Assembly: GCF_045636185.1 (NCBI RefSeq)
Contig: NZ_JAZTXC010000109.1
Location: 3,187-67,186, forward strand
Direction: 5' to 3'
DNA length: 64,000 nt
Origin: Methanobrevibacter sp.
GTDB lineage: Archaea; Methanobacteriota; Methanobacteria; Methanobacteriales; Methanobacteriaceae
Part shown: one piece after another, positions 13,399 through 45,800 of the stretch
Numbering within the stretch: position 1 is the stretch's first letter
Layout of the letters: each line of letters opens with the position of its first letter
Program-made: the position numbers and the translations under genes
The notes under the pieces: generated by a model
Seen by the model: the letters and a program-made list of their open reading frames with translations, nothing else
Told to the model about the DNA's origin: nothing
Database searches by the model: none

Positions 13399-15850
13399 AT
13401 GAATAATTTGTTTAATAATTCAGATGATAAACTTGAAAAAAATGAATATCTGAATACAAAGGAATTTAATAAAGATTTAAAATACTGGAATGATATGCTT
13501 TCAGATGCAGAAAAGTATGTGAAATTTTATAACATTAAATCAAATTCATATAAAACCAAAAAAGTAACTCTTAAAAACAAATCACCCCATACTTTTTTAA
13601 ATAAGAATAACATTTCTAGATTTAATTTTATAACTGGAATATTTTCTTTATACTTATCCCGTGTTGACAAAACTCAAGGATGCTTATTTAATACTATCAA
13701 TAAAAATTCCGGTAAAACAACACTATTAAAAATTGATTATGATGAAAATATATCATTTAATGAGCATTTAAGTAAAATAGAATATATTATAAATGAAACA
13801 AAAAAGCATAGCAAAGCAGATATTGAAAATTATACTGATATCAAATCATTTTACTCAATTTATGATTTAACAGACTTAAATAATAATTCCATTGCCAATG
13901 AAGAAAAATGTGCTTTAATACTGAATATCCATAAGGATTCACTGGAATTAATATATAATACTGATTTATTTGAAGAAATTTACATTGACCATATGCTAAT
14001 GAATATTGAATCAGTAATCGATAATGTTCTAAATTCATCAAATCAACTTTGTAAAAATATTCCAATAATAAGTGAAGAAGATAAATCATTAATTGCAGAA
14101 TTTTGTAAAAGTGACAGAGTTGATGTTGATAATGATAAAACAATAGGATTGGCTGTCCATGAAAATGCAATTAAGAATCCTAATAGTATTGCAATAGACG
14201 ATGGAGATAAACAATTAACTTATTTGGAATTTGATAAATTAACAAATTCAATTGCATATGATTTGATTAATAACTATAATATTAATCAAGGAACTCCAGT
14301 CTGCTTAATGATATCACGGAATTATTATTTTCCTGCATTAGTCATAGCGCTTAATAAAATTGGTGCCGCATCCATTCCAATTGATCCAGAATATCCTCAA
14401 AAACGTATTGAACATATGATAAACATCTCCGAATCCCAAAATATCATCATATCTAAAGAATATGAAGATTTATATGATTTTGATATCAACACAATCATCG
14501 CAAATGATTTAGAAACTAATAATAATATTGATTTTGAAATAAAAAGTTCTGGTGATGATTTATTTACCATAATGTTTACTTCAGGTACAACAGGTCTTCC
14601 AAAAGGAGTAAAAATCTCCAATAAACAAATTAGCGGAATAAGTAATGCTTATAGAAAGATATTTGATATTTCCGGAGAAGAAATTATTGGCTGCTATGCA
14701 AGTTTTAGTTTTGTCGGATCTTATGGAATGTATTGGGCATTATACCTTGGTGCAAGTGCTAGAATTTTTAATGAAGATGAGCGGAAAGACAGTTTATTGT
14801 TAATAAAAAAACTTAAAGAAAAACCTATAGATATAATAACTTTACCTCCTAGTGTAGGTATTCCTATTTTTGAAAATGATGATTTGAAAATAAGATATAT
14901 GACATTAGCAGGTGCAAAGATAAATGAATTAGAATATAGGGAAAATTATACAAAACTAGTTAATTTTTATGGGTCAACCGAAGTAATTTTAGCAATTACT
15001 AAAATTTTTGATTTGAAAAATATGGATAAACATATCCCTCTCGGTAAACCACTAAGTAATACCTGGGCATATATTTTAGATAAAAATAATGAACAAGTTC
15101 CTATTGGCGTTCCTGGAGAAATATGCATTTCAAGCGAATATATAAGTCCGGGATATATCAACGATAATTTATCCGACAATAGTTTTATTGATAACCCCCA
15201 CTCTGATTGTGAAAGCAATAAAAGAATGTATAAAACGGGAGATATTGGTTTTTATAATTTTGATGGTGAAATTGAAATCATCGGCCGTGAAGATAATCAA
15301 TTATCCGTTAGAGGTTTTCGTGTAGAAACAAATGAAATAATAAACACGTTAAATAATTTTAATATAAAAGAAAGCTATTTAGATGTAGAAAACGATACAT
15401 TGATATTATATTATACTACAACAGACAATGTAAATATAGATGACATTAAAAACGCTTTAAAAATGGAATTACCTGAATATATGATTCCTTCACTATTTAT
15501 TAAATTAGATAAAATTCCATTAAATGTAAATGGTAAAATAGACAAATTTGCATTGAAAAAAATCGGTGAAAATAACATTAATGAAGATGTTGATGATGAA
15601 ATCCTTAAAACCATTATTGAAGGATTTAAAAAGGTTTTAAACAAAGATTTCATATTAATAGATGATGATTTCGTTGCTTTAGGTGGAAATTCACTATCTT
15701 CAATGAAATTACAACTATATTTAAAAAATGAATTAAATGTAGATATATCCTCCAATAAATTAATCGAATTGTCAACACCACTTAAAATTAGTGACTTTAT
15801 CAAATTTAATTCAAATGAAATAAATAATGAAGTTAATTATACTTTTGATG
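13399..15850 (+). other. NRPS module 1 (starter): truncated C-lobe, divergent A domain, T domain
   Basis: About 215 aa of C-domain-like sequence (KDLKYWNDML; GIFSLYLSR) with no HHxxxD. A domain has FTSGTTG, SFSFVGS, FYGSTE, YKTGD and NGKIDK. T domain has GGNSL. Boundaries approximate. Confidence 0.85.
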
Positions 15851-18800: not shown

Positions 18801-21800
18801 TAACGAAAATTCTTTTGATTTAGATGTTTATTCTTTAGATGATGGATGTCCTTTAAATGAACCTCAATTAAATGTATATTTAGACATTATTGCAAATAAC
18901 AAGTATGATTCATACATTATTCCGGTGAAAATGAATATTTCAAAAAAATATTCAAAAGAGAATCTATGCAATGCGTTACAGGAAATGCTTAATGTTCATC
19001 CAATATTAAATATGTGCATAAGTGATGAATTTGAAGTTCCATATTTAGTGAAAGGGAAAAAGCCAGAAATTGGGATTAAATCCGAAATTGATGATGAATT
19101 GCTTAATAAATTTTTAACTGAAAGATTTGATTTGCATAACAGTTTATCAAGATTTTTAATTATTGAAAATGATGACAAATATAACCTGTATGGTGTTTTC
19201 CATCATTTAATATTTGATGGATTATCTAAAAATGCATTTAAAAAAGATTTATTAAGTATACTTAATGGTAATTTAGTTGATGTTGATGATTCATTCTTAA
19301 AAATATCTGCATTTAACGAACAAATTCAAGAAAAAGAACAATTTAATGATGCTAAAAACTTTTATGACATAATGTTAGCAGATAATGACGAAGTTAGTGT
19401 TTTATTAGATGATGCAGTAGATAATGAATCCGGAACTTATACAATAAATCTTGATAAGAACATAAAGGAATTTATTAGAAATAAAAATATCGGAGAAAAC
19501 ATATTATTTACTAGTGTCTTTGCTTATACTTTATCCAGATTTACTGGTAGTGAAAAAGTATTATTCAACATAGTCGAAAATGGACGAGACAGACTAAACA
19601 ACTACAATTCAATCGGAATGTATGTAAATACATTGCCATTATTAGTTGATTGTAAAAATCAATCCATTACCGAATTTATTAATTATATGCAAGATTTAGT
19701 TTATAATGTAATGCGATATAACTATTATCCATTCAGATTTTTAGCAAATGAGTACAATATAGATTCCAATATTATTTTCCAATATCAGCCAAAATGGTTT
19801 AATGAAACTAATAATGATGAAAATGCCATTACTGAAGATATGATTAATAACATGACTGGTTTTATTAATGATTTAAATACTGCAGTTATAGAAAAAGAAG
19901 ATTCTTATGAGTTAAATATTACATATTCAGACAAATACTCAAAAAACACAATAGAACATATTGCTAAAACATATAAATTAATATTATCCCAAATAATTGA
20001 AATCAATGAATTGTCTGATATAAATCTAACTGCAGAAGAGGACATCAAACTTTTAAATTCATATAATAAGACAGAATGCACTTTAAAATATGGAGATATA
20101 ATAAAAGAATTTAATAACAATTTATTAAGACATGAAGACAAAATTCTTGTTGGATATGAAGATGAATCATATACCTATGGGGAAAGTGCATTCATTGTAA
20201 ATGAAATAGCTAATGAATTAACCAACATGGGCATCATTAAACAGGATTATGTATCATTATTTGTTGAACGTTCAGAGTGGTATTTACTTGCAAGTTTAGG
20301 AGTTTTAACAATAGACAGCATTTATGTTCCTATTGAGGCCACTTATCCTGATGAACGTATTATTTTAATGTTAAAGGACACACAATCAAAAGTTGTTATT
20401 GTAACAGATAAGACAGAACAAAAGATGCTTAAAATTATTTTAGATAACGACTTGAATGTTGATGTCTTAAATGTATCCCAAATTACTGATGAAGAGATTG
20501 GCAGTTTAACTAATTTAAATTCAATTGAAGTTGGCGAAAATGATATTGGCTGTGTTTTATACACCAGCGGTACTACAGGTACTCCTAAAGGTTCCCTGAT
20601 TACACGTAAAGCCATTAATAACTTTGTTTCATGGTATGTTGAAGAAACCAATTTTACATCAGAGGATACTTATGGAATGCATTGCTCCTATGTATTTGAT
20701 ATTCACACAGCGGCCCTATATGCTCCAATAATTACTGGCGGATCATTATATGTAGTGCCAGAAGACATTAGATTAAATTTAAAAGCTTTGAATGATTATT
20801 ATGTTGAACATGAATGTACCCACACATACATTACAAGTCAGGTAGGTAAATTATTCGCTGAAAGCGGCATGAAAACTACCATCAAATTATTGTGTTTCGG
20901 TGGAATGAAGCTTGGAGAGTTAAATGCTCCAGATTCCATCGGTCCATTTGAAACCTATGGTCCGTCTGAAAATTTAGCAGTTTCTACAAGTATCTGGGCC
21001 AACAAACGTATACATCACACAAGCATTGGCAGATTTATTAGCAATGTTAAAGGATATGTTCTAGATAATGAACATCGCCGTGTTCCATTAGGTGCTGTAG
21101 GAGAATTATACCTCGCAGGCCATCAATTAAGTAAAGGATACTTAAATCGTGCAAAAGAAAATGAAAAAGCATTTTTCGATAATCCATTCGATTATGAAAA
21201 AGGATACGAGAAAATTTACAGTACTGGAGATATGGTTAGATTCCTACCGGACGGAACAATAGCTATTGTAGATCGTCGAGATAATCAAGTAAAAATCAGA
21301 GGAAACCGTGTAGAACTGCCTGAAGTCGAATCAGCAATTAGAAGAATTGATTATGTTGATGATGTGACAGTTCAGATAATTGATAACAAAGGTAATAATG
21401 AATTAGTAGCTTATGTTGTCGTATCAAATGAATTGACGGGAGATGCACTTGAAAATTCAATCAAAAAATATGTATCGCAGCATAAACCTGATTATATGGT
21501 TCCTTCATTTATCATTGGTTTAGATGAAATCCCATTAAATGTTAATGGTAAAGTAGATAAAAAAGCATTACCTAAAGTTGATTTAGATAGTTTACGTGCA
21601 GAATATGTTGCACCAAGAAATGAAATAGAAAAAGACATTGTAAAAGCTTTTGAAGAAGTATTTAATCAAGAAAAAATTAGTATAAACGATGATTTCAGCC
21701 GTTTAGGTGGAGATTCATTAACCGCCATTAAATTATTATCAAATCTTAAAGATTATAATCTTTCAGCGGCAGACATTTTAAGTTTAAACACACCAAAAGC

Positions 21801-24800
21801 AATTGCAGAGAATATTAACGAATGTTCTTTTAATTTTGACAAATATTCTATTGAAAGAGGATGTCCGTTAAATGAACCTCAATTAAATGTGTATTTAGAT
21901 ATTATTGCAAACAATAAAATTGATTCATACCTTATTCCACTAAATATGAATATTCCAAAGAGATATTCTGGAGAAAATATACATAATGCTTTAAATGAAA
22001 TGATTAATGTTCATCCAATCCTTAATATGTGTGTAAGCGATGAATTTAATGTTCCATATTTAGTGAAAGGAAACAAACCAGAAATTTCAATTAAATCCGA
22101 AATTGATGATGAAACACTCAATAAATTTTTAAAACAGCCATTTGATTTATATGAAAGCTTATGCCGATTTTTGATTATTGAAAATAATGATGAAAACATA
22201 GTATATGCGGTTTTCCACCATTTAATATTTGATGGATTATCTGAAACAGTATTTAAAAAAGATTTATTAGCATTACTTGATAATGAAACAGTTGATATCG
22301 ATAATTCATTTTTAAAAGTATCTGCATTTAACCAACAAATACAGCAGGCCAAAGAATATGAAATTGCTAAAGAATTTTATGATTTGATGTTGGCAGATAA
22401 TGAAGATGCAAATAATTTATTAGACGACATATCTACTGACGGACCAGGAGTTTATCGTATAGAGTTAAATAAAAATATTGGAGAGACTATCAAAAAGAAT
22501 AACATTAATGAAAATGTATTATTCACAGGCGTTTTTGCTTATACATTATCTAGATTCACAGGTAGTGAAAAAGTCTTATTTAATATTGTTGAGAACGGAC
22601 GGGACAGATTTGGCAATTTCAATTCAATAGGAATGTATGTTAATACTTTGCCGTTATTAGTTGATTGTAAAAATCAGTCCAGTTTAAATTTCATTAAATA
22701 TATGTCTGAATTAATTTATGATGTGATAAGATACAACTACTACCCATTTAGATTACTATCTAATGAATATAATATTAATTCCAGCATTATTTTCCAGTAT
22801 GTCCCAGATTGGTTTGGTGAAAATAGCAATGAATCCAATGCAGATATTATTAAAGACATGACTGATTTTATCAGTGATTTGAGTGTGGATGTAGTTCAAA
22901 ATAAAGACAAATATTCATTAAATATCATGTATTCAGATAAATACTGTGAAAATACCATAAAACATTTTGCAAAGACATATGAATTAATATTATACCAAAT
23001 AATTAGTGCTGAGAAATTATCTGATATTGATATTATTACTGATGGCGATATTAAACTTTTAGATAGCTATAATCAAACACAAGAAGAAGTAAGCTGTAAT
23101 GATATTTTAGATGCATTTAACGCTAATTTACCAGAACATGAAAATGACATTCTAATCGGTTATGAAGGCAATGTTTATACGCATGGCCAGTGTGCATTTG
23201 TTGCAAACGAAATTGCAAATAAATTAGGTGATCTCGGCGCCAAATCCCAAGATTTCATTTCATTATTTGTTAATCGTTCTGAATGGTATTTGTTAGCCAG
23301 CATGGGTATTTTATCAATGGGTGGAGCTTATGTGCCTATTGATACAAGTTATCCTAACGAACGTATTATTTTAATGTTGAAAGACAGCCATTCAAAAGCA
23401 GTTATCGTAACAGATGAATCAGAACAGAAGATCCGCGACATTATTTTAGAAAATGATTTAAATGTTGATGTTTTGAATGTATCTGATTTAATTAACGACA
23501 ATATTGGTAGTTTAAACCATTTATATAATACTGCTATTAGTGAAAATGATATTGGTTCCTTATTATACACTAGTGGTACAACTGGCATTCCTAAAGGAGT
23601 TAAAATTACTCGAAAAGCCATAAATAACTTTGTTTCATGGTATGTTAAAGAAACGAATTTCACATCACAAGATGTCTTTGGACTGCATTCTTCCTATGTA
23701 TTTGATATGCATACACATGGATTATTTGCCCCGGTTATTAGTGGAGGTTCATTATATGTGGTTCCTGAAGATATCAGATTAGATTTGAAAGCTTTAAATG
23801 ATTTCTTTATCGAACATAATTGTACTCATACTTTCATCACAACCCAAATAGGTAAGTTATTTGCCGAAAGCGGTATGGATACAACAATTAAGTTATTATG
23901 TTTAGGTGGCATGACACTTGGTGAATTGAATGCTCCGGATTCCATCGGCCCGCTTGAAATTTATGGTCCTTCCGAAAACTTAGCAGTTTCCACAAGCATT
24001 CCTGCCAACAAACGTATACATCACACAAGCATAGGCGGATTTATTGACAATGTCAAAGGTTATGTTCTTGATAATGAACACCGTCGTGTTCCATTAGGTG
24101 CAGTAGGAGAATTATATCTTGCAGGCCATCAATTAACACCAGGTTATTTAAATAATAAAGAAGAAAATGCCAAAGCATTCTTTGATAATCCATTTGATAA
24201 TGAAAAAGGATATGAACGTATTTATAAGACTGGAGATATTGTAAGATTCTTAAGTGACGGCACTTTAGGTTTTGTAGGTAGAAGAGATAATCAAGTAAAA
24301 ATCAGAGGAAACCGTGTAGAGCTGCCCGAAGTTGAATCAGTAATCAGAAGCATAGATTATGTTGATGATGTTACAGTCCAAGCAATAAATAATAAGGGCA
24401 ATAATGAATTAGTAGCGTATGTAGTTGTATCCAACGAATCAACTGGCGATGCACTTGCAAATTTAATCAAAGATTATGTATCACAACACAAGCCGGATTA
24501 CATGATTCCATCATTCATCATTAATCTGGATGAAATTCCATTAAATGTCAATGGTAAAGTAGATAAAAAAGCATTGCCCGAAGTTGATTTAGATAGTTTA
24601 CGTGCAGAATATGTCGCTCCAGTAACAGAAACACAAAAAATAATAGTTAACGCTTTTGAAATCATATTTAATCAGGAAAACATTAGTCTATATGATGACT
24701 TCATTCGTTTAGGTGGAGATTCCATTAAATCCATTCGCCTTATATCAATGCTCCAAAATGACAATATTTCATGCACTGCTCAAGATATACTAAATTACAA

Positions 24801-33800: not shown

Positions 33801-36800
33801 TGGAACAACTGGTGTTCCTAAAGGTGTTAAAATAACTAGAAAATCCGTAATTAACTTTTCAGAGTTTTATGCTAAACATTATGGATTGACAAAATATGAT
33901 GTCTTTGCATTGTATGCTTCCATTGGTTTTGATGTGGCTATGGAATCAATATTTGCATCAATCTTTTCAGGAGCCTGCTTAAATATAATCCCTAATGAAA
34001 TTAAATTAGACATGAATGCCATGAATAGTCATTTTATGAAGCATAATGTCACTTTCGCTCACCTTCCTGCACAAGTTGCAAAATTATTTATCAGCCAAAC
34101 AAATAACACTTCCCTTAAAGTTTTATGTGCTGGTGGTGAAAAATTAGGTGAAATAGAAACAGATACAAACTACAAGTTCTTTGATACATATGGCCCTACA
34201 GAAACATTCATTGATGTAACAAGCATTAATATAGAAGATAAAGTTGATGCTTCATCCATAGGTCATTTATTTGACAACACCAAAGCATATGTATTGGATA
34301 ATGAAAAAAGACGCGTACCATTAGGTGCTGTTGGAGAACTATATATAGCAGGATACCAAGTAGCGGAAGGTTACTTAAACCGTGATGAAGAAACAAACAA
34401 TGCATTTTTAGATAATCCATTCGTTGATAATAAAGATTACAATATAATGTATCGCAGTGGAGATTTAGCGCGAGTATTGCCTGACGGTTCACTGGGAATT
34501 GTCGGACGTAACGATAATCAAGTTAAAATCAGAGGAAACCGTGTAGAATTAAGTGAAATAGAAACAACTATACGTGAAATAGATTATGTGGATGATGTGA
34601 CAGTTCAAACAGTTAAACATGATACCAATAATGAATTGGTGGCATATGTAGTAGTATCTAATGATTTAGATGGAAATATATTAAAAGATTCAATTCATAA
34701 TCATGTTGGTAAACATAAACCAGAGTACATGATTCCATCATATGTCATTAAACTAGACAGCATTCCTTTGAATGTAAATGGTAAAGTAGATAAAAATGCA
34801 TTGCCTGTAGTTAATTTTGATTCATTACAACGAGAATATGTTGCTCCAATTACAGATAATGAAAAGATAATTATTAATGCATTTGAAGAAGTGTTTAATC
34901 AAGACAAGATTAGTTTGTACGATGACTTTGTCCATCTCGGAGGAGATTCCCTAATTGCTATTAAGATATTATCCCATTTAGACAACCACAATATTACTGC
35001 AGCAGATATTTTAAGTTTACGTACCCCTTACGCAATTGCTAATGCTATTGGAGGAAAATCATTTGATTTAGATATATATAATTTAGATACTGGTTGTCCA
35101 TTAAATGAACCACAATTAAATGTATATTTAGATATTATTGCAAATGATAAAGTTGATTCTTACATTATTCCAATTATCATGGATATTTCAAAAGAATATG
35201 ATGTTAATGAGATATTTAATGCATTAGAAACAATGATTAATCTTCACCCAATATTGGGTATGTGTGTTGATAATGACTACGATATTCCTTACTTAGTAAA
35301 AGGATCTAAACCAAACATATCCCTTGAAAATAATATAACAAAAGGATTTATTACAGAATTTTTAACAAAACCATTTGATTTATATAACAGTTTATGCAGA
35401 TTCTCAATTGTTGAAAATAAAGATAAATATTTATTATTGGCTGCATTCCACCACATTATTTTTGATGCATTATCAGATAGCATATTTAAACAACATTTAC
35501 AAACAATTCTTGATGGTGGAATTGTAAAACCTGATGAATCATTCTTAGAAGTATCTGCTTTTACACAACAAATCCATGAATCTGAAGAATATAATGAAGC
35601 CCATAAATTCTATGATAAAATGCTGGCAGATAATGATGAGGTTGGCATTTTATTAGATAGCGTGATGGCTGATGGTCCAAGCGTTTGTCAAAGTGATTTA
35701 GAAATAGACTATAACTTATTTAAATCATTTTTAGATACAAATGAAGTTAGTGAAAATGTATTATTTACCAGTGTTTTTGCATATACATTATCCAGATTTG
35801 TCGGTAGTGACAAGGTACTATTTAACATCACAGATAACGGACGTGACAGATTCAACAATTACAATGCAATTGGAATGTATGTAAACACTTTACCTATGCT
35901 TGTTGATTGTAAAACTCAAGATATCTCATCATTCATTAATTATATGTCAGATATCGTCTATGGAGTTATGAAATATAACTATTATCCATTTAGACAGCTT
36001 GCAAAAGAATATAATATTGATTCTAATATATTATTCCAATTCTTACCTGAATGGATTAGTAATGATAATGAAACTCCTGCTGAAATTGAATCAATATCCG
36101 AAGAAAGCATCATTGGAGAAATGGATGATTTAATTAATGATTTGACAGTTGAAGTTATTCAAAGAGGTCAAAAATATAATTTAATAATTATGCATTCGGA
36201 TAAATATTCCAAAGCAATGGTCGAAAGATTCATTGACTCATATAAATTAATATTATCACAAATAATCCATGTTGACAAATTATCTGATATTGAATATATT
36301 ACAAAATCCGATTTAGAGATTTTAAATGAAATTAATCAGACTGAATCCGATTTGGAATTCAATGATATTTTAGATGCATTCAATAGCAATCTATTAAAAT
36401 ATGAAAATAAAATTCTTCTAGGTTATGGCAACAATAGCTATACCTATGGTGAAAGTGCATTTATTGCTCAAGAAATTGCCGATAGATTGAATAATTTGGG
36501 AGTTTATTCTCAAGAATGCGTTGCCCTTTTTGTTAATCGTTCAGAATGGTATTTATTAGCAAGTATGGGTGTCTTATCCATTAATGGAATTTATGTCCCT
36601 ATTGAAAGTACATATCCTGATGACCGTATTATTTTAATGCTTAGGGATAGTGGATCCAATGTTGTTATTGCCAGTGATGAAACAGAACAACGCATCAATA
36701 AAATTATTTCAGATAATAATTTGGATATTGATGTTTTAAATGTATCAGACATCACCAATAATATCAGTAGTTTAAATCATTTGAACACTGTAGAAGTGAA

Positions 36801-39800
36801 TGAAAAAGATATTTCTTGTGTTTTATATACTAGTGGTACTACAGGTACTCCAAAAGGTTCTTTAACTACCCGTAAAGCTATAAATAACTTTGTTTCATGG
36901 TATGTAAAAGAAACTGAATTTACTTGTAATGACATTTATGGAATGCATTGTTCATATGTGTTTGATATTCATACTGCTGCCCTATATGCACCTATTGTTA
37001 CTGGTGGTTCATTGTATATTGTTCCAGATGACATTAGATTAGATTTGAATGCTTTAAATGAATTTTATGTTAAACATGGTTGTACTCACACATATATCAC
37101 GAGCCAAGTTGGAAAACTATTTGCAGAAAGTGGAATGGACACCACAATTAAACTTTTATGTTTCGGAGGAATGAAATTAGGCGAATTGAATGCTCCAGAT
37201 TCAATTGGACCATTTGAAACATATGGGCCATCAGAGAACTTAGCTGTATCCACAAGCATATTTGCAAACAGCCGTATACATCATTCAAGTATCGGATACT
37301 TTATTGACAATGTTAAAGGATACATTTTAGATAAGGAACATCGTCGCGTACCTTTAGGTGCGGTTGGTGAATTATACCTTGCAGGTCACCAATTAACACC
37401 AGGATACCTAAATCGTGAAGAGGAAAACAGCAAATCATTCTTCGATAATCCATTCGATAATGAAAAAGATTATGAAAAAATTTATAGTACCGGAGATATT
37501 GTTAGATTATTACCTGATGGCACTTTAGGCATTGTTGGACGTCGGGACAGTCAAGTAAAAATCAGAGGAAATCGTGTAGAACTCACAGAAGTTGAATCAG
37601 TCATTAGAAGCATTTCTGATGTTGAAGATGTTACCGTTCAAACAATACAAAATAATGATAATAACGAATTAGTTGCATATATTGTAGCATCCAATGATTT
37701 AGAAGATAATGAGTTAGTTAATTATGTCCGTGATTATGTAAATAAACACAAACCGGATTACATGGTTCCGACATATGTTATAAGATTAGATGAAATTCCA
37801 TTAAATGTAAATGGTAAGGTAGATAAACGTGCTTTGCCTGATGTTGATTTGGAAAGTTTGCGTGCAGAATATGTGGCTCCAAGAAATGAAACAGAACGTG
37901 AAATCATTGAAGCTTTCGAAACCGTGTTTAATCAAGATCAAATTGGTATTTATGATGATTTCATTGGTCTTGGCGGAGATTCATTAACTGCAATCAAATT
38001 ATTATCTCATTTAGAAGATTATAATATCACAGCTGCAGATATTTTAAGTTTGCATACACCAAAAGCAATAGCAGAAAACATTAAAAATATTCAAATGGAT
38101 TTAGACATCTATTCATTAGAAGAAGGATGTCCTTTAAACGAAGCACAATTAAATGTATACTTGGATATTATAGCAAACAATAAATATAATGTATACCTCA
38201 TCCCACTTAGAATGGAAATCTCCAAGGAATACGCCATTAAAGAAATCGAAGATGCATTAGATACAATGATAAATATTCATCCAATATTAGGCATGCGCAT
38301 TAGTGATGAATATGAAGTTCCATATTTAATTAAAGGATCTAAACCTTTAGTTTCAATTAATTCTAATGATGATGAGGAATTTATAATCAATTTTGTTAAC
38401 GAATCCTTTGATTTACATGATAATTTATGCAGATTTTTAATCGTTGAAAATGAATCTGATTATATATTATATGCGGTTTTCCACCACATAATATTTGACG
38501 CTTTATCAGATAATGTATTTAAACAAGATATGAAAAATATTCTTGAAGGAAATGAATTGAAAGTTGATGATTCATTCCTTAAAGTATCTGCTTTTACCCA
38601 GCAAATACAAGAATCCGAAGAATATGGTGAAGCTGGTGAATTTTATGATGAAATGCTAGTAGACAATGAGGAAGTTGGTATTTTATTAGAGAGTGAATTA
38701 TCCGATAGACCTGGATTCAAGCAAATTAACCTAGACATAGATTATGACATATTCAAATCATTTTTAAATGAAAATGCAATTAGTGAAAACGCATTATTTA
38801 CTAGTGCATTTGCATATACATTATCCAGATTTGTCGGTAGTGACAAAGTACTGTTTAACATCACAGACAACGGACGTGACAGATTCAATAATTACAATGC
38901 AATAGGAATGTATGTAAACACATTGCCTATGCTTGTTGATTGTAAAACTCAAGATACCACATCATTCATCAATTATATGTCAGATATCCTCTATGGAGTC
39001 ATGAAATATGACTATTATCCATTCAGACAACTTGCAAATGAATACAATATTGACTCCAACATATTATTCCAATTCATGCCAGAATGGATTGAAAATGAGG
39101 ATAAAACATCTGATGAAATAACTGAAGAAAGCATTAATGAAAACATAGATGAATTAATTAACGATTTCACAGCAGAAGTGATTCAGAAAGGCAGAAACTA
39201 TACTTTAATCATAATGCATTCTGATAAATATTCTAAATCAATGATTGAAAGATTCATTAACTCATATAAATTAATATTATCACAAATGATTAAAGTTAAT
39301 GAATTATCCGACATAAATTATGTTTCTAAATCAGATTTAGAACTTTTAGAGGATATTAATAAAACCGAACATCCTTTAATCTTTGAAGATCTCTTAGATG
39401 CGTTTAATAACAATCTTGCGAAATATCCGGACAATAACCTTGTTTCTTATAAGGATGTTTGTTATACTTATGGTGAAAGTGCTTTTATCGCAGATAAAAT
39501 AGCTAAACAATTAACTCACCTAGGTGTCAAATCACAGGATAATGTAGCGTTCTATACTCAACGCTCAGAATATTACTTACTATCTGCATTGAGTATTTTA
39601 TCTATCGGTGCTGTTTATGTTCCTTTAGATGATAATTTACCTGATGAAAGAATTAAACTGATATTGGAAGATACTGAAGCCAAGGTCATTATTGTTGATG
39701 ATGAGACATGTGAAGATGCCGTCAATTTATTCGGAGACTATATGATTTTGAATGCATCAGAAATTATTAAAAATAATAAAGGTACATTATCTAATTTACC

Positions 39801-42800
39801 TACAATTTATGGTGATTTAGCCTGTATTTTATACACCAGCGTTACTACAGGTATTCCTAAAGGTGTAAAAATTACCCGAAAGTCCATTTTAAATGTGGCC
39901 GAGTTTTATAAAGACAAATATGGCTTAAGTAATAATGATGTTTATGGATTATTCTCCAACATCAGTTTTGATGCAGCACTTTTAGCTATGATTACTGTTT
40001 TATACTCAGGCGCCTGCTTATCAGTTGTTCCAGATGAGATTAGATTGGATATGAAATCATTGAATGAATATTTCATAGAACAAAATGTAACCCATACTCT
40101 CATTACATCCCAGGTAGGAAGATTATTCATGAAAGAAGTGGATAATACATCATTAAATGTCTTATTTGTTGGTGGTGAGAAATTAGGTGAATTTGAAAGC
40201 CCTGAAGATTACACTTTAGTTGATGCATTCGGACCAACAGAAGCCTGTGTATTCATATCATCAATTGAAAATATTGATAAAACAGATGCATCATCAATAG
40301 GATTTTTAAACTATAACACCAAAGTCTATGTCTTGGATAATGAATTTAGGCGCGTACCTATTGGTGCTGTTGGTGAATTATATGTATCCGGTTATCAAAT
40401 CGCAAACGGATACTTAAATAGAGAAGAAGAAACTAACAATGCATTTTTAGATAATCCTTTCGATGAAGGGGATTATAATGAAATGTATCGTAGTGGAGAT
40501 ATGGTAAGAATATTGAATGACGGTTCATTAAGTATTGTAGGCCGTCGTGACGGACAGGTTAAAATCAGAGGAAACCGTGTAGAATTATCTGAAATTGAAA
40601 CAGTTATCCGTGAATTAGATTATATTAAAGATGTTACAGTACAAACAATTAAAAATAATACGAATAATGAATTAGTTGCTTATGTTGTTGTTTCTAAAAA
40701 AATAGATGACCTTAAAGATAAGATTTGCAAATATGTAGGCGAATCCAAACCTGAATATATGGTTCCGTCCTTTATTATTGAATTAGATGAAATTCCATTA
40801 AATGTGAATGGTAAAGTAAATAAAAAGGCATTGCCTCAAGTTGATTTTGATAGTTTACATACAGAATATGTTGCCCCAACAAGTGAAACTGAAAAGATAA
40901 TAGCACAAGCATTTGAAGATGTATTTAATCAAAAAGATGTTGGATTATATGATGACTTTTTCCATCTTGGTGGAGATTCTATTACAGCAATTCGTGTTAT
41001 TTCATTACTTCAAAAAAATAACATTACCTGTACTGCCAGAGATATATTAAATAATAAAACTCCATACTTAATTGCAAAAAATATTAAAAATATAGAAAAT
41101 ATATCATATGATCCTGTTGAAGGAGAAATAGATTTACTTCCTATTCAAAGTTATTTCTTCGATAAAGTTAACGAAGATGGATTTTCACAAACATTCCTCT
41201 TAAAATCCAAAAAAGATTTGGATATCGATATTTTCCAAGATGCAGTGAATGAGTTAACCAATATTCATGACATGTTGCGTGCAAATTATAAACAGGAAAA
41301 TGAAAAAGTAATTCAGGAAATATTGCCATTAGATAGCAATATTTGTAAAGTGAAAGTCTTTGATGCATCCAATAATCTTAAAGAATCTATTGAAGATATT
41401 TTTAATCAAACCAATGTTTCATTAAACAAGAACAAACTGATTGATATTAATATAATCCGTCATGAAACCGGCTGCTATGTACTTTTCAATATACACCATT
41501 TAATAATTGATGGAGTCAGCTGGAACATTTTAATAAACGATTTAACTCAAATTTATTCCAATTTAGAAGCAAAGCAAGAAGTTAACCTAGTAAGACCATA
41601 TCCTTATAAAAATTGGGTTGAAAATGTGAAAGAATTGGTAAATAACATATCTGATGAAGAAAAACAACATTGGATAAAATTAAACAATCTACTGGATGAT
41701 TCAAATATTAAAGGAAACAGTAATGCATTCGCATTTAATGTTGATGCTAAGTTTGATGCAAATAATTCCTTAATGTTATCTGAAGAAGAATATTTGGCTT
41801 TAGCAATATCTCGAGCATATAAAAAGACATATGGTGAGAATATAATATTCAATCGTGAATCTTATGGTCGTGATGAAAGTTTAGCAGACAATTCAAGAAC
41901 AATTGGTTGGTTTACTAGCCAATACCCAACATTAGTTGAAGTAAATAACGGTTATGATAATATTTCCTTAATGCAGGACATTTATAGCCTTAAACAAGCA
42001 TTCAAAGAGGTAAATTATTTAGGTTTAAATTATTCTTCCTTAATTTATACCACAGAAGAATTAGAATTTAAATATTGTCCAGTTACTTTTAATTTCTTAA
42101 GTACTGAATTCGCTTTCAAAAATGAATTGTTTGAATCAGTAAACTTTAACTCTGAATTAGAAGATGAAATTCATATTAACGAGATTGATTCTACATCATA
42201 TGGTATCAGTTTAAATGTTTCTAGTATTAATAAAGGTTATGTTATAAAAGGAGAATATGCTGGTGAAACTTTTATCGGCGACAGCTTTGATGAATTTGTT
42301 GAGAATATTAAATCAGAATTAAGATTTATAAGTGATTTCGACATAAATCAAAAGGACATTGTTTGTTGTTTATCCGAATCTCAAATGGGTGTTTATTTAG
42401 ATGAAAAAGTAAATGACAAAGGCAATGCGTATGCATGTACTGAAATTTTAAAATGTGATTTAGACAATGAAGAAATTATAAATGCCGTTTATTCCGTAAT
42501 TGATAAACATCCTATTTTAAAAGGACGTATCCTTGACAATGGCGATATGCCTTTATTAGTTTGTGATAATTATCCTTCAATTGAAGAAATTAACACTGAG
42601 AATTATTCTGAATTAGTTAAACCATTTGATTTGAATAAATCACTAGCGGATTTCCATATTATCAATAATGAGAAAGGAAAATTCATATTTTATAATATTC
42701 ATCACTTAATTATTGATGCTACTTCCCGTACAATATTGAATAAGGAAATACAAGAAGCTTTAGAAGGTAAATTAGATGATGTTATTGATTTAGGATTTGT

Positions 42801-45800
42801 CTATAGTAGTATGGACTCTTTTGAATGTAAATTTAAATCCGATTATCGCTCAGCATATGAATTCTTCAATAAAGAATTTGTAGATATGGACAATATTCCA
42901 GAATTATTGGCAGATGTTAGTGAATCTGCAGGCAGAGTTTCCCTCCCTATTAGAAATATTCGCAGCAGTATAGAAGAATACGCCCATAAAAATGGCATTA
43001 CTATAGGTAATTTACTAAATGCAGTATTTGCATATACATATTCACGTTTTACTGGTAGTGACAAAGTTTACTTTAATTTCACAGAGCACGGCAGACATGA
43101 GGATTATAGCAAAAATGCTTTAGGCATGTTTGTTCGTACAATACCAATCATTACTAATTGTAATAATGATTCCACTAAAAATTATTTAATTAATTTTTCA
43201 GATTTAGTTTTAAATTCAATGCAAAACAGTATTTATCCATACAGATTGCTTGCAAATGAGTTTAATTTAAATAATAATGTAATGTTTGAGTATAACTCTG
43301 ATTTAAATGATGTATCATATATTAAAGATGAAATCATTGTAGAAAATTATCCAAATGACTTCGTAAATGAATTTTCTTGCATCATTAATGATTTGAATGA
43401 TGGATATGTTATTCATGTAGAACATTCAAGCAAATATTCTAATGAAACATGCATTAGATTTGCAAAAACATATGAACGAATATTATTTGAAATAATCAAA
43501 GTTAAAGAACTATCCGAAATCAATTACATAACAAAAGAAGATTTAAAACTTTTAGATTCCTATAATGAAACCGAACATCCGCTAAAATATAATGATGTTT
43601 TAGATGCATTTAATGAAAATCTTATTAAATATTGTGAAAATAAACTTGTATCTTTTGAAAATAATTCATACACTTATGGTGAAGGTGCATTTATTGCTGA
43701 AAAAATAGCTAAATCTTTAAAGAATTTAGGTGTTGATAAAGGTGACAATGTTGCATTTTTAGTTAAAAGGTCTGAACTATACATGTTCTCTGTTTTAGGT
43801 ATTATGTCCATAGGTGGAGTCTATGTTCCTTTAGATGATGCTCATCCAGATGAACGTGTTGAATTCATACTAAATGATACAAAATCCAAAGTTATTCTTG
43901 TTAGTGATGAAACCTATAATCGCGTTAATTCTTTAGATAATAATTCAATTATTCTAAACATATCCGATATTTTAAGAGACAATATTGGAACAGTATCTGA
44001 TTTGCCTGTGATTTATAATGATTTGGCTTGTATTTTATACACCAGTGGTACTACAGGCATTCCTAAAGGTGTAAAGATTACAAGAAAGTCCATATTGAAC
44101 TTGTCTGAGTTTTATATCAGAACATTTGGTCTTGGTGAAGATGATGTTTATGCATTATTTGCTTCCATCGGATTTGATGTAGCGATGAAAGCTATATTCC
44201 CAACAATTTCTGCTGGGGCATGCTTGACCATAATTCCTGAAGAAATCAAACTAGATGTGAATGCAATGAATGAATATTTCATTAAGCAAGGTGTAACACA
44301 CACAGAAATATCAACACAGGTAGCTAAAATCTTTATAAGTCAAGTGGATGAAACACCATTGAAAGTTTTAACGACTGGTGGAGAAAAACTAGGAGAAGTT
44401 GAAACAGATGTAGATTATCGTTTTGTAGATGAATATGGTCCGACAGAAGCATGTGTGGATGTAACCAGTATCGATTATGATAACAGAATTGATTCTTCAT
44501 CAATCGGTTTCCTGCTTGACAATATCAAAGCTTATGTATTGGATGATGAGTTCAGACGTGTACCCGTTGGAGCAGCAGGTGAACTATACCTTGCAGGTAA
44601 TCAAATTGCAGACGGATATCTAAATCGTGACGAAGAAACTCAAAAAGCTTTCCTTGAAAATCCATTCGATGAAAGAAAAGAATACAGTGTAATGTATAGG
44701 ACTGGAGATATTGTAAGAGTCTTGGCAGATGGATCACTAGGAATTATTGGACGTCGTGACGGACAGGTAAAAATCAGAGGAAACCGTGTGGAATTAAGTG
44801 AGATAGAAACAATAATACGTAAAATTAATTATGTAGAAGATGTAACAGTCCAAATAGTTAAACATGACACCAATAATGAATTAGTGGCTTATGTAGTGAT
44901 ATCCAACAATTTAGATGACAATTTACTTACAGACTCCATACGCAATTATGTAAATTCCCAAAAACCAGAGTACATGGTTCCTTCATATGTAATTAAATTA
45001 GATGAAATTCCACTAACTGTTAATGGCAAAGTGGATAAAAATGCATTGCCTAAAGTAGATGTGGATAAATTACTTGCCGAGTATGTTACACCAAATACTG
45101 AAACTGAAAAGATAATTGTCAAATCCTTTGAAAATGCATTCAATCAAGAAAGAATTAGTTTATATGACGATTTCATTCGCCTTGGAGGAGATTCAATCAT
45201 AGCTATGAAAATCGTTTCTGATTTATCCAAACAAGATATTAGCATCGATGCCAGAACCTTATTTAAAAATAGAACACCATACAATATTGCCCAAATTATT
45301 GATGGAAACGAAAAAGAATATGGATTTGAATTAGCCAGAAAAGGTAGTAAAAATCAGAATATGTTCTTATTACCACCAAATTCAGGATTATCATTTATTT
45401 TCTCCACATTAATTAAAAATATTGACTTCGATGGAAATATTTACATAATTGACGATTATAGATACGAATTAACAATAGAAGAAATTGAGAAAATTAATGG
45501 TACTGAAATCGCATTTGAAAAGTATTATGAAGCCATTAAAGACATTTTCCAAGATGGAGATATAATTGTTGGGTATTCACATGGATGTATCTTCGCACCA
45601 TTAATTTGTGAACGCTTAGAAAAAAGCAAATATGTAGATAAATGTGTTCTTATAGATGGACTCCTGAAATTTAGTGAAAAAAGCAACTATGATGAAACAA
45701 AAATTAATCAACTAAAAGAAGATGCAGAAGTATTATTAAAAGATGCGGCAGAATATGAAAATGATGAGGAATTGAAAAATAAATTGATAAGCGTAGCCAT

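Follow-up and report, generated by a model that had tools for sequence, protein, structure and literature searches.

A starter adenylation domain without Asp235 in a ten-module NRPS of Methanobrevibacter, probably loading a non-amino carboxylic acid

Introduction

Adenylation (A) domains that activate amino acids bind the alpha-amino group of the substrate through Asp235 (GrsA numbering). In A domains that activate keto acids this residue is replaced by an aliphatic one (PMC10949194, PMC13643306), and in StsA the equivalents of Asp235 and of the conserved A5 proline are Ile306 and Met415 respectively (Alonzo et al., 2020, via PMC11253843). The M415P change in StsA abolishes keto-acid activation and P483M in LgrA raises activation of KIV (PMC11253843); an aliphatic residue at 235 combined with a residue other than proline at A5 constitutes the published signature of the StsA type of alpha-keto-acid A domain. 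In McyG the equivalent of Asp235 is a valine (V227), yet its crystal structure contains L-Phe-AMP (PMC11253843), so that an aliphatic residue at 235 is also compatible with a hydrophobic amino acid.

Methanogen biology is a target for methane mitigation. We know of no archaeal NRPS product. Hundreds of NRPS clusters are reported from rumen Methanobrevibacter genomes (PMC8241843), and PMC2812497 describes mru0068 and mru0351 of Methanobrevibacter ruminantium as both thioesterase-terminated, with the module 1 C domain of mru0068 taken by Leahy et al. to suggest N-acylation. The structure of a PCP-R (reductase) didomain of Mru_0351 is given in PMC8024701. Loss of Asp235 from a starter module is not mentioned in the passages of these papers that were consulted. 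Here we describe an archaeal NRPS of this kind, located in a window of 64,000 nt (the whole stretch of DNA that was analysed), whose first A domain departs from the amino-acid-activating type.

Results and Discussion

Organization of the NRPS gene

The NRPS gene occupies positions 13399–45987 of the forward strand, on which the parts of this gene described below also lie, and is a single reading frame of 10,862 amino acids in the ORF list. Its identity is supported by the motif scan, by Pfam AMP-binding, Condensation and PP-binding matches and by direct reading of A9 and the C-terminus. The domain order is [C-lobe remnant]-A1-T1-C-A2-T2-C-A3-T3-C-A4-T4-E-C-A5-T5-C-A6-T6-C-A7-T7-C-A8-T8-C-A9-T9-E-C-A10-T10-TE-like end, with 10 A, 10 T, 9 C and 2 E domains recognized by motif scan and Pfam. 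T1, the first carrier domain (15613–15801; Pfam PP-binding at aa 739–801), carries its phosphopantetheine-attachment residue, Ser765 (15691–15693), inside LGGNSL, a variant of GG(H/D)SL that is found family-wide. The first complete condensation domain, C2 (15851–17050, HHLIFDG at aa 934), is an outlier among the C domains of this NRPS: in a comparison of identities it is 39–44 % identical to C3, C4 and C6–C9 and 32–34 % identical to C5 and C10. The same figures place it closer to the LCL-like set than to C5 and C10 and speak against a grouping with the post-E C domains.

The A1 adenylation domain and its substrate pocket

A1 (aa 231–727, 14089–15579) was examined through PDB sequence matches, an AF2 model and TIGR01733, and its Pfam AMP-binding match, its A3, A7 and A10 motifs and its fold identify it as an NRPS A domain of the ANL superfamily (PF00501 plus PF13193). 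The ATP-binding and catalytic motifs are intact. The motif scan recovers the A3 P-loop FTSGTTGLPKG (14575–14607), A7 as YKTGD (15229–15243) and, in agreement with the alignment, the A10 catalytic lysine, Lys713 (15535–15537; GrsA Lys517), within PLNVNGKID; the arginine usual after A7 in NRPS A domains is replaced (TGDIGFYNFDG). The AF2 model is confident and complete (pLDDT 87.4) and has no inserts. Its best match in a fold search is 1AMU (E 1e-44), LgrA in the thiolation state scores a TMq of 0.86, and the PDB sequence matches include GrsA at 250 bits and LgrA A1 at 226 bits; the top matches in the PDB sequence and fold searches contain neither an aryl-acid domain (DhbE/EntE) nor a FAAL. With TIGR01733, the amino-acid adenylation model, A1 scores 259.6 bits, below the cut-off of 317.4 that A2 passes with 332.9 bits, and acyl-CoA ligase and MenE models reach at most 132 bits against cut-offs of 330–987.

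The preliminary description of this DNA had located a valine codon in the A4 core of A1 where the nine other A domains have aspartate, and this is exact. Val439 is encoded by GTC at 14713–14715 within ASFSFVGS (aa 434–441, 14698–14721). The HMMER alignment sets SFSFVGS of A1 against SFSFDGS of LgrA, so that the valine falls on the aspartate, and a MAFFT alignment with GrsA as a ruler, which reproduces the published code DAWTIAAICK, gives A1 the code VGYTTAFLAK and places Asp at 235 in all of A2–A10. In the AF2 model Val439 is the first residue of helix 209–220, a helix start that we take to be the Asp235 site in GrsA. The A1 stretch corresponding to F234–G248 is one residue shorter than in GrsA and the placement of the gap is ambiguous; nevertheless no D or E occurs in VGSYGMYWALYL or the other A1 pocket stretches, nor within nine residues on either side of the valine, so that no realignment can supply the aspartate by which amino-acid A domains are recognized (Stachelhaus/Conti). 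The motifs GEICISSEYISPGY, GREDNQLSVRGFRVE and GGNSL were likewise found where that description had put them.

Two further residues associated with amino-acid A domains are missing from A1. At the conserved A5 proline (GrsA P325, LgrA P483, StsA M415; N.YGPTE) the alignment shows Ser526, encoded by TCA at 14974–14976 within NFYGSTE (14962–14982), and at the GrsA Lys434 position of A8 it shows Ser636 (15304–15306; QLSVRG, within GREDNQLSVRGFRVE, 15283–15327), although Arg641 matches Arg439 and is kept. Roles for both A8 residues are given in PMC11253843, where K434 is said to stabilise the thiolation state; its loss in A1 could impair loading. In a background set of 831 A domains, drawn from 150 large NRPSs, 97.7 % have Asp235, 86 % the A5 proline and 96 % Lys434. 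Since the proline is also absent from 12.6 % of the Asp-containing domains, its replacement alone is weak evidence. The two losses do, however, accompany one another, the proline being absent from 15 of the 19 domains that lack Asp235 and from 102 of the 812 that retain it (Fisher P = 1.8e-10), and this generalises a rule previously drawn from one structure, StsA.

The pocket of A1 is purely hydrophobic. Its code agrees with no known code at more than 4 of the 8 variable positions and with the nearest Asp-containing codes at 3–4 of 8, which is too little for a substrate to be named from the code. Those nearest codes (DAYTTAGVCK, DAYTVAAVCK and DASTIAAICK) are of the aromatic type and the best solved relative is GrsA-PheA. 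Together with V227 of McyG in its L-Phe-AMP complex, they suggest that A1 might still load a hydrophobic L-amino acid (Phe-, Leu- or Ile-like), with the amino group held by backbone carbonyls alone, as in that complex, and thus start an ordinary decapeptide with a free N-terminus. We consider this unlikely. The acids that McyG itself favours in loading assays are phenylpropanoids; in A1 three residues linked to alpha-amino-acid A domains have been lost together, a change fixed across its clade; the TIGR01733 score is under the curated cut-off; and the upstream C-like domain, which would need an amine acceptor, has decayed or been deleted.

The N-terminal condensation-like domain

Upstream of A1 lies the remnant of a degenerate condensation-like domain (aa 1–230, 13399–14088), of which the C-terminal lobe alone is left, as judged from Pfam, the alignment and the fold of a paralogue. 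The Pfam Condensation match is confined to aa 181–231, and the remnant aligns to columns ~122–373 of full-length relatives. A PDB sequence search with this domain finds nothing beyond the last 60 residues; it was identified by a fold search, in which the model of a full-length paralogue (pLDDT 88) has the fold of an NRPS C domain (Foldseek E 2e-19, TMq 0.70–0.79). The HHxxxDG region is absent from aa 1–230. A longer or frameshifted N-terminus can be ruled out as the explanation, since the stop-to-stop frame adds 3 codons and 111 bp separate the gene from the upstream FtsJ-like gene. Four of 18 aligned members, including this one, have lost the N-lobe. In most of the relatives the His motif is degenerate, reading HP, SS, NS or HQ followed by xIFDY, such that Pro, Ser or Gln takes the place of the second, catalytic His and Tyr that of the Gly.

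A C-fold domain does precede A1 in the relatives, HHxxxD is retained in a few of them (C90, L021 and L037), and N-acylation was the suggestion made for mru0068 in PMC2812497, all of which would suit a classical lipoinitiation in which a starter C domain N-acylates an A1-loaded amino acid from fatty acyl-CoA or acyl-ACP. We nevertheless regard this as extremely improbable. For this gene it is refuted by the complete absence of the N-lobe with its His motif and by a frame that cannot be extended upstream, the second His and the Gly of the motif are substituted in most relatives, and A1 lacks the amine-binding Asp. The half C domain is a structural remnant and does not catalyse lipoinitiation, and the decay or deletion of the C-like domain in the family suits a starter without an acylatable amine.

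A conserved clade of starter domains

A1 is 28–32 % identical to A2–A10, which are 49–75 % identical among themselves, and its much greater divergence, remarked on in the preliminary description, is thus evident. In the tree its lineage is separate from that of A2–A10, within a clade (support 98/93, core 100/100) of about 40 starter domains, found in rumen and gut Methanobrevibacter and in two rumen Clostridia. Genome and contig scans were the better source of such relatives, a representative search ranked by summed multi-domain score having yielded few true starters. Each of them is the first, N-terminal A domain in its own protein. At 235 they have Ile, Val or Met and in no case Asp; the A5 proline is Thr in most and Ser or Met otherwise, with NAYGMTE, as in StsA, in three. 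The triple I/V-T-S combination is confined to this clade when compared with the 831 background A domains. The module is therefore of separate origin in the sense that A1 stands apart from A2–A10, but rather than an isolated graft it is the standard cassette for initiation in this NRPS family, with five copies in this genome and further ones in other genomes of Methanobrevibacter and in Lachnospiraceae/Clostridiales of the rumen. The clade descends from amino-acid-type A domains and has since lost the residues that fix the alpha-amino group. In the tree the bacterial members fall within the Methanobrevibacter clade, a topology that would point to transfer of the cassette between rumen archaea and rumen bacteria, perhaps with the archaea as donors.

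The starter domains of the clade are under purifying selection, with whole-domain dN/dS of 0.08–0.32 in the 25 lowest-dS pairs and a median of 0.23 over 203 pairs. Conservation covers A3, A7, the A8 Arg and the A10 Lys; there is little or no variation in the P-loop residues, YG.TE, Y.TGD, GR.D.Q..RG.R.E and NGK; and T1 retains its serine motif. Pocket residues vary from one paralogue to another, with codes such as IAYFVAFFGK and IAIIIAFMAK, in the way that would be expected if substrates had diversified. These observations bear on the proposal that A1-T1 is a catalytically dead structural leader, with synthesis beginning at module 2 and C2 either idle or serving as the starter C domain. In favour of that proposal one may cite the loss of Lys434, the altered P-loops of some relatives (TSGTTN, TSRTTG and TSGTSG), the outlying position of C2 and the clearly vestigial C-like domain. 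Low dN/dS, near-invariant core motifs, an intact carrier serine motif and the variation among paralogue pockets all speak against such a leader, which seems to us improbable, and Lys434 is likewise missing from the aryl-acid domains EntE and DhbE, which nevertheless load carrier proteins. Taken together with the confident and complete model, motif conservation and low dN/dS suggest that A1 is functional rather than decayed.

A candidate initiation route

On the evidence above, A1 is probably a working A domain, from a distinct and conserved initiation clade, that charges T1 with a non-amino carboxylic acid to form the N-cap, and the N-terminus of the peptide is most likely a plain, keto or hydroxy acid. 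A non-amino first unit had been proposed from the missing aspartate; that proposal is strengthened by the changes at the A5 proline and Lys434, by their fixation in the clade under purifying selection and by the vestigial C-like domain, although it falls short of proof as long as McyG combines Val at this position with L-Phe-AMP. By this route A1 would adenylate a hydrophobic carboxylic acid without an alpha-amino group, the acid would pass to Ser765 of T1, and C2, taking the T1-bound starter as its donor, would condense it onto the amino acid of module 2. The nine Asp-containing modules would then carry out elongation, positions 4 and 9 being D-residues, and the TE-like C-terminal domain would release an N-capped product of one acid and nine amino acids.

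Several kinds of acid could serve. A1 has both residues expected of a keto-acid A domain of the Ak/KAL (StsA) type, an aliphatic one at 235 (Val, with Ile, Val or Met in relatives) and one other than proline at A5 (Ser526, with Thr or Met in relatives), the latter freeing the Gly-X backbone carbonyl. This pair favours 2-oxo and 2-hydroxy acids over the fatty or aryl acids also considered in the preliminary description, although the latter may yet be used. If the N-cap is accepted, our leading guess, offered tentatively, is a hydrophobic 2-oxo acid left unreduced, giving an N-terminal alpha-ketoamide; a plain aryl-alkanoic or branched short-chain acid is a slightly less favoured candidate, and a 2-hydroxy acid is doubtful. 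The suggestion of a methanogen-specific metabolite is disfavoured, because the same cassette occurs in bacteria and the pocket is purely hydrophobic.

The module departs from the keto-acid type in having no KR: the A8–A10 spacing is normal, the model contains no insert, and T1 follows directly and is itself followed by C2. To our knowledge all characterised modular keto-acid modules carry a KR. No reductase, dehydrogenase or aminotransferase gene was found adjoining the NRPS gene or its bacterial homologues. The neighbours in the window are housekeeping genes (metallophosphoesterase, FtsJ, PurP, MCM, NMD3 and TyrRS), and the paralogue contigs, for which ORFs were listed, appear from N-terminal sequences to have UvrA- and FtsX-like genes. 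At the two Lachnospiraceae loci the neighbouring genes encode a SpoIIE phosphatase, a radical SAM protein, an ABC/FtsX exporter, a GNAT and a hydrolase. A KR, dehydrogenase or aminotransferase acting in trans was accordingly dropped as a candidate, the neighbours across loci being uninformative on the starter acid.

We venture, as a speculation, that the clade comprises previously unrecognised KR-less 2-oxo-acid initiation modules, from which methanogens and a few rumen Clostridia would make long peptides with an electrophilic alpha-ketoamide cap; such a cap would mirror the aldehyde warheads that peptides of gut Clostridia carry at the C-terminus. Should a non-amino starter prove to be clade-wide, structure prediction and mass-spectrometry searches must allow for such a start, and synthetic 'predicted natural product' work on these peptides must provide for an acyl, keto-acyl or hydroxy-acyl group at the N-terminus. 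The clade is also a natural experiment in A domains giving up the alpha-amino anchor, and the joint loss of Asp235, the A5 proline and Lys434 should be useful for specificity predictors and engineering.

Comparison with known systems

The nearest solved relatives of A1 are the initiation-module A domains of GrsA (PheA), TycA and LgrA (1AMU, 5ES5/5ES8), at about 30 % identity. A1 shares the SFSF-x-G-S A4 context with LgrA, but these domains keep Asp235, the A5 proline and Lys434 and activate L-Phe or L-Val. With StsA/CesA, CrpD-M2 and the Dol15D KAL it shares an NRPS-type architecture derived from amino-acid A domains and an aliphatic residue at 235, and with StsA in addition a replaced A5 proline (Met415 in StsA; Ser, Thr or Met in the A1 clade) and a place in an initiation module. 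Unlike the keto-acid A domains, it has no KR in cis or nearby, has also lost Lys434, and is preceded by a vestigial C domain. Neither StsA nor McyG nor DhbE is among the best 60 sequence or the best 50 fold matches to A1; there is thus no specific kinship with the StsA type, and the clades are independent. The McyG loading A-T of microcystin synthetase (PDB 4R0M) resembles A1 as an amino-acid-type starter with Val at 235 and a hydrophobic, aromatic-type pocket, but it feeds a PKS.

Among archaeal enzymes, the NRPS described here is like mru0068 and mru0351 of M. ruminantium M1 and the other rumen Methanobrevibacter clusters (PMC2812497, PMC8024701, PMC8241843) in its bacterial (Firmicutes) affinity, its solitary position and its C-like start to module 1; the M. 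ruminantium enzymes described have two and four modules, against ten and a TE-like end here. The A1 clade shares its habitat with gut and rumen Clostridia whose NRPSs make N-capped dipeptide aldehydes (ruminopeptin-type; PMC12327764), and it is itself represented in the trimodular NRPSs of Lachnospiraceae bacterium AC2029. The ruminopeptin-type enzymes differ from the Methanobrevibacter NRPS in their reductase ends and dipeptide products.

The NRPS gene and its modules

The window is AT-rich and archaeal in character (27-36% G+C in 2-kb windows), and PurP-like, FtsJ-like, MCM, NMD3 and TyrRS genes are neighbours of the NRPS gene, a single forward-strand ORF (13399-45987) of 10,862 aa. Motif scans and Pfam identify 10 adenylation (A), 10 carrier (T), 9 condensation (C) and 2 E domains, in the order C-lobe remnant-A1-T1-(C-A-T)x3-E-C-A5-T5-(C-A-T)x4-E-C-A10-T10, and the complete first module occupies 13399-15850 (forward strand). 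The 262 aa that follow T10 (45199-45984, forward strand) have no Pfam match and no sequence match among solved structures but contain a GYSHGC nucleophile-elbow motif, and are thus a very divergent thioesterase-like release domain. Domains A3, A4 and A8 (19900-24600 and about 36300-38000) form one subfamily, 71-75% identical, with the codes DIAYCGTAVK and DMHFCGIAVK, YGPSE for YGPTE and GGM for GGE. The P-loop of domain A9 reads TSVTTG (39835-39852), Val (GTT) replacing the first Gly of TSGTTG that is found in the other nine A domains; the module may be inactivated or skipped, or the change may be an error of sequencing or assembly.

Altered core motifs in A1

The A4 core motif of A1, ASFSFVGS, has Val439 (GTC, 14713-14715, forward strand) at the position of Asp235 (GrsA numbering). 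HMMER pairs SFSFVGS with SFSFDGS in the initiation A domain of LgrA, placing Val on Asp, and a GrsA ruler sequence that returns the published code DAWTIAAICK gives VGYTTAFLAK for A1 and D.........K for each of A2-A10. The F234-G248 span is one residue shorter in A1 than in GrsA; neither VGSYGMYWALYL nor the remaining pocket-lining stretches of A1 contain Asp or Glu, which means that an acidic residue cannot be recovered by shifting the alignment. The loss of Asp235 from A1 alone, as given in the preliminary description, is thus borne out, as are the other sequence strings quoted there and the marked divergence of A1, which is 28-32% identical to A2-A10 as against 49-75% among the latter. An AlphaFold2 model (pLDDT 87.4, pTM 0.89), in which Val439 starts helix 209-220, is that of a complete A domain without an insert; the closest structure and top match is GrsA PheA (E 1e-44), and TMq against the LgrA thiolation state is 0.86.

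A1 also departs from amino-acid A domains at two more near-invariant positions: the proline of core motif A5 (N.YGPTE) is Ser526 (NFYGSTE) and Lys434 of motif A8 is Ser636 (GREDNQLSVRGFRVE). Aryl-acid A domains likewise lack Lys at 434. No change affects the P-loop, YKTGD, the A8 Arg or the A10 Lys. Among 831 background A domains from 150 large NRPSs, Asp235 is kept in 97.7%, the A5 Pro in 86% and Lys434, described as a thiolation-state stabiliser (PMC11253843), in 96%. Loss of the A5 Pro accompanies loss of Asp235 (15/19 versus 102/812, Fisher p = 1.8e-10), and the aliphatic/Thr/Ser triple at 235, A5 and 434 is confined to A1 relatives. With the amino-acid adenylation model TIGR01733, A1 scores 259.6 bits, below the cut-off of 317.4, and A2 332.9.

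A clade of starter domains

Four further NRPS genes in the same genome have a first A domain 53-56% identical to A1, all with SFSFIAS. This 2.29-Mb genome has at least ten NRPS-like ORFs (contigs C12, C64, C90, C139, C142, C170, C112 and C137), five with an Asp-less starter; two A domains of another lineage also lack Asp235 (TISFIMS on C112, TTTFIAF on C170). Among 201 scanned genomes of the family, eight from four genera carry the starter domain, a scan of species-representative genomes found it in many rumen/gut Methanobrevibacter MAGs, Lachnospiraceae bacterium AC2029 and a Clostridiales MAG, and a global protein library yielded five representative proteins. All of the approximately 40 members stand first among the A domains of their proteins and have Ile, Val or Met, never Asp, at position 235; motif A5 reads N.YG[T/S/M][T/S]E, A8 mostly ..QLSVRG.. 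and T1 mostly LGGNSL, and Ser replaces Lys434 throughout the clade. One related genome carries a pseudogene copy with six stop codons (L019, G149:C17:11376-12854).

In a maximum-likelihood tree the starter domains form a single clade (support 98/93; core 100/100), separate from A2-A10, GrsA, LgrA and other Asp-less domains, which are of independent origin. The separate origin proposed for the first module holds only in part: A1 is a distinct lineage, but the module is the standard initiation cassette of its NRPS family. The two bacterial members sit within the Methanobrevibacter clade, and since bacteria use the same cassette, the methanogen-specific metabolite suggested earlier as starter is unlikely. 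AC2029 has two trimodular NRPS genes with the starter domain (53% identity; L040/L046-L049, contig positions 2.11 Mb and 2.62 Mb), with a SpoIIE-type phosphatase, a radical SAM protein and an ABC/FtsX-MacB exporter as neighbours.

Starter domains have dN/dS of 0.08-0.32 in the 25 lowest-dS pairs (median 0.23 over 203 pairs) and invariant or nearly invariant catalytic motifs. Paralogues differ at pocket positions (VGYTTAFLAK in A1; IAYFVAFFGK, IAIIIAFMAK and VAFIVAFCGK), which argues for substrate diversification and not decay.

In relatives about 360 aa precede the starter A domain. In sequence this segment hardly resembles any solved C domain, but its model from a same-genome paralogue (pLDDT 88) has the NRPS condensation fold (Foldseek E 2e-19, TMq 0.70-0.79). 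The His motif is HHLIFDY in a few members and degenerate in most (HPLIFSY, SSLIFDY, NSLIFDY, HQLIFDY), and the N-lobe that bears it is deleted in 4 of 18 aligned members, including the window's gene, for which classical lipoinitiation is thereby ruled out. An amine-less starter unit fits such decay of an acceptor-side catalyst.

Proposed starter unit and comparison with keto-acid domains

The starter unit of A1 is probably not an amino acid. This N-cap proposal of the preliminary description is strengthened and sharpened by the clade-wide loss of Asp235, the A5 Pro and Lys434 and by a vestigial C-like domain. The carboxylic acid adenylated by A1 would be hydrophobic and lack an alpha-amino group; loaded onto Ser765 of T1, it would serve C2 as donor, and nine amino-acid modules would then extend the chain. 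C2 (15851-17050) is the first full condensation domain and stands apart from the other C domains, being 39-44% identical to C3, C4 and C6-C9 (53-69% mutually) and 32-34% to C5 and C10, the post-E domains; in relatives it accompanies the starter cassette. The Asp-containing codes nearest to that of A1 are of aromatic type, matching at just 3-4 of 8 positions, and the pocket is expected to lose depth through Phe322. Within the non-amino-acid class, a 2-oxo acid retained as an alpha-ketoamide cap may be put forward tentatively as the leading candidate, closely followed by a plain aryl-alkanoic or branched-chain acid; a 2-hydroxy acid would be improbable.

Two comparisons count against the keto-acid reading. 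McyG also has Val at the Asp235 position, yet was crystallised with L-Phe-AMP (PMC11253843), and the characterised modular keto-acid modules all have a KR domain, which the A1 module lacks; no reductase was found near the gene in the window, in ORF listings of the paralogue contigs or at two Lachnospiraceae loci. [quoted passage not shown] With an aliphatic residue at 235 and a non-Pro residue in A5, A1 and its clade have, by published residue positions, both determinants described for StsA, and three members share Met at the A5 proline position.
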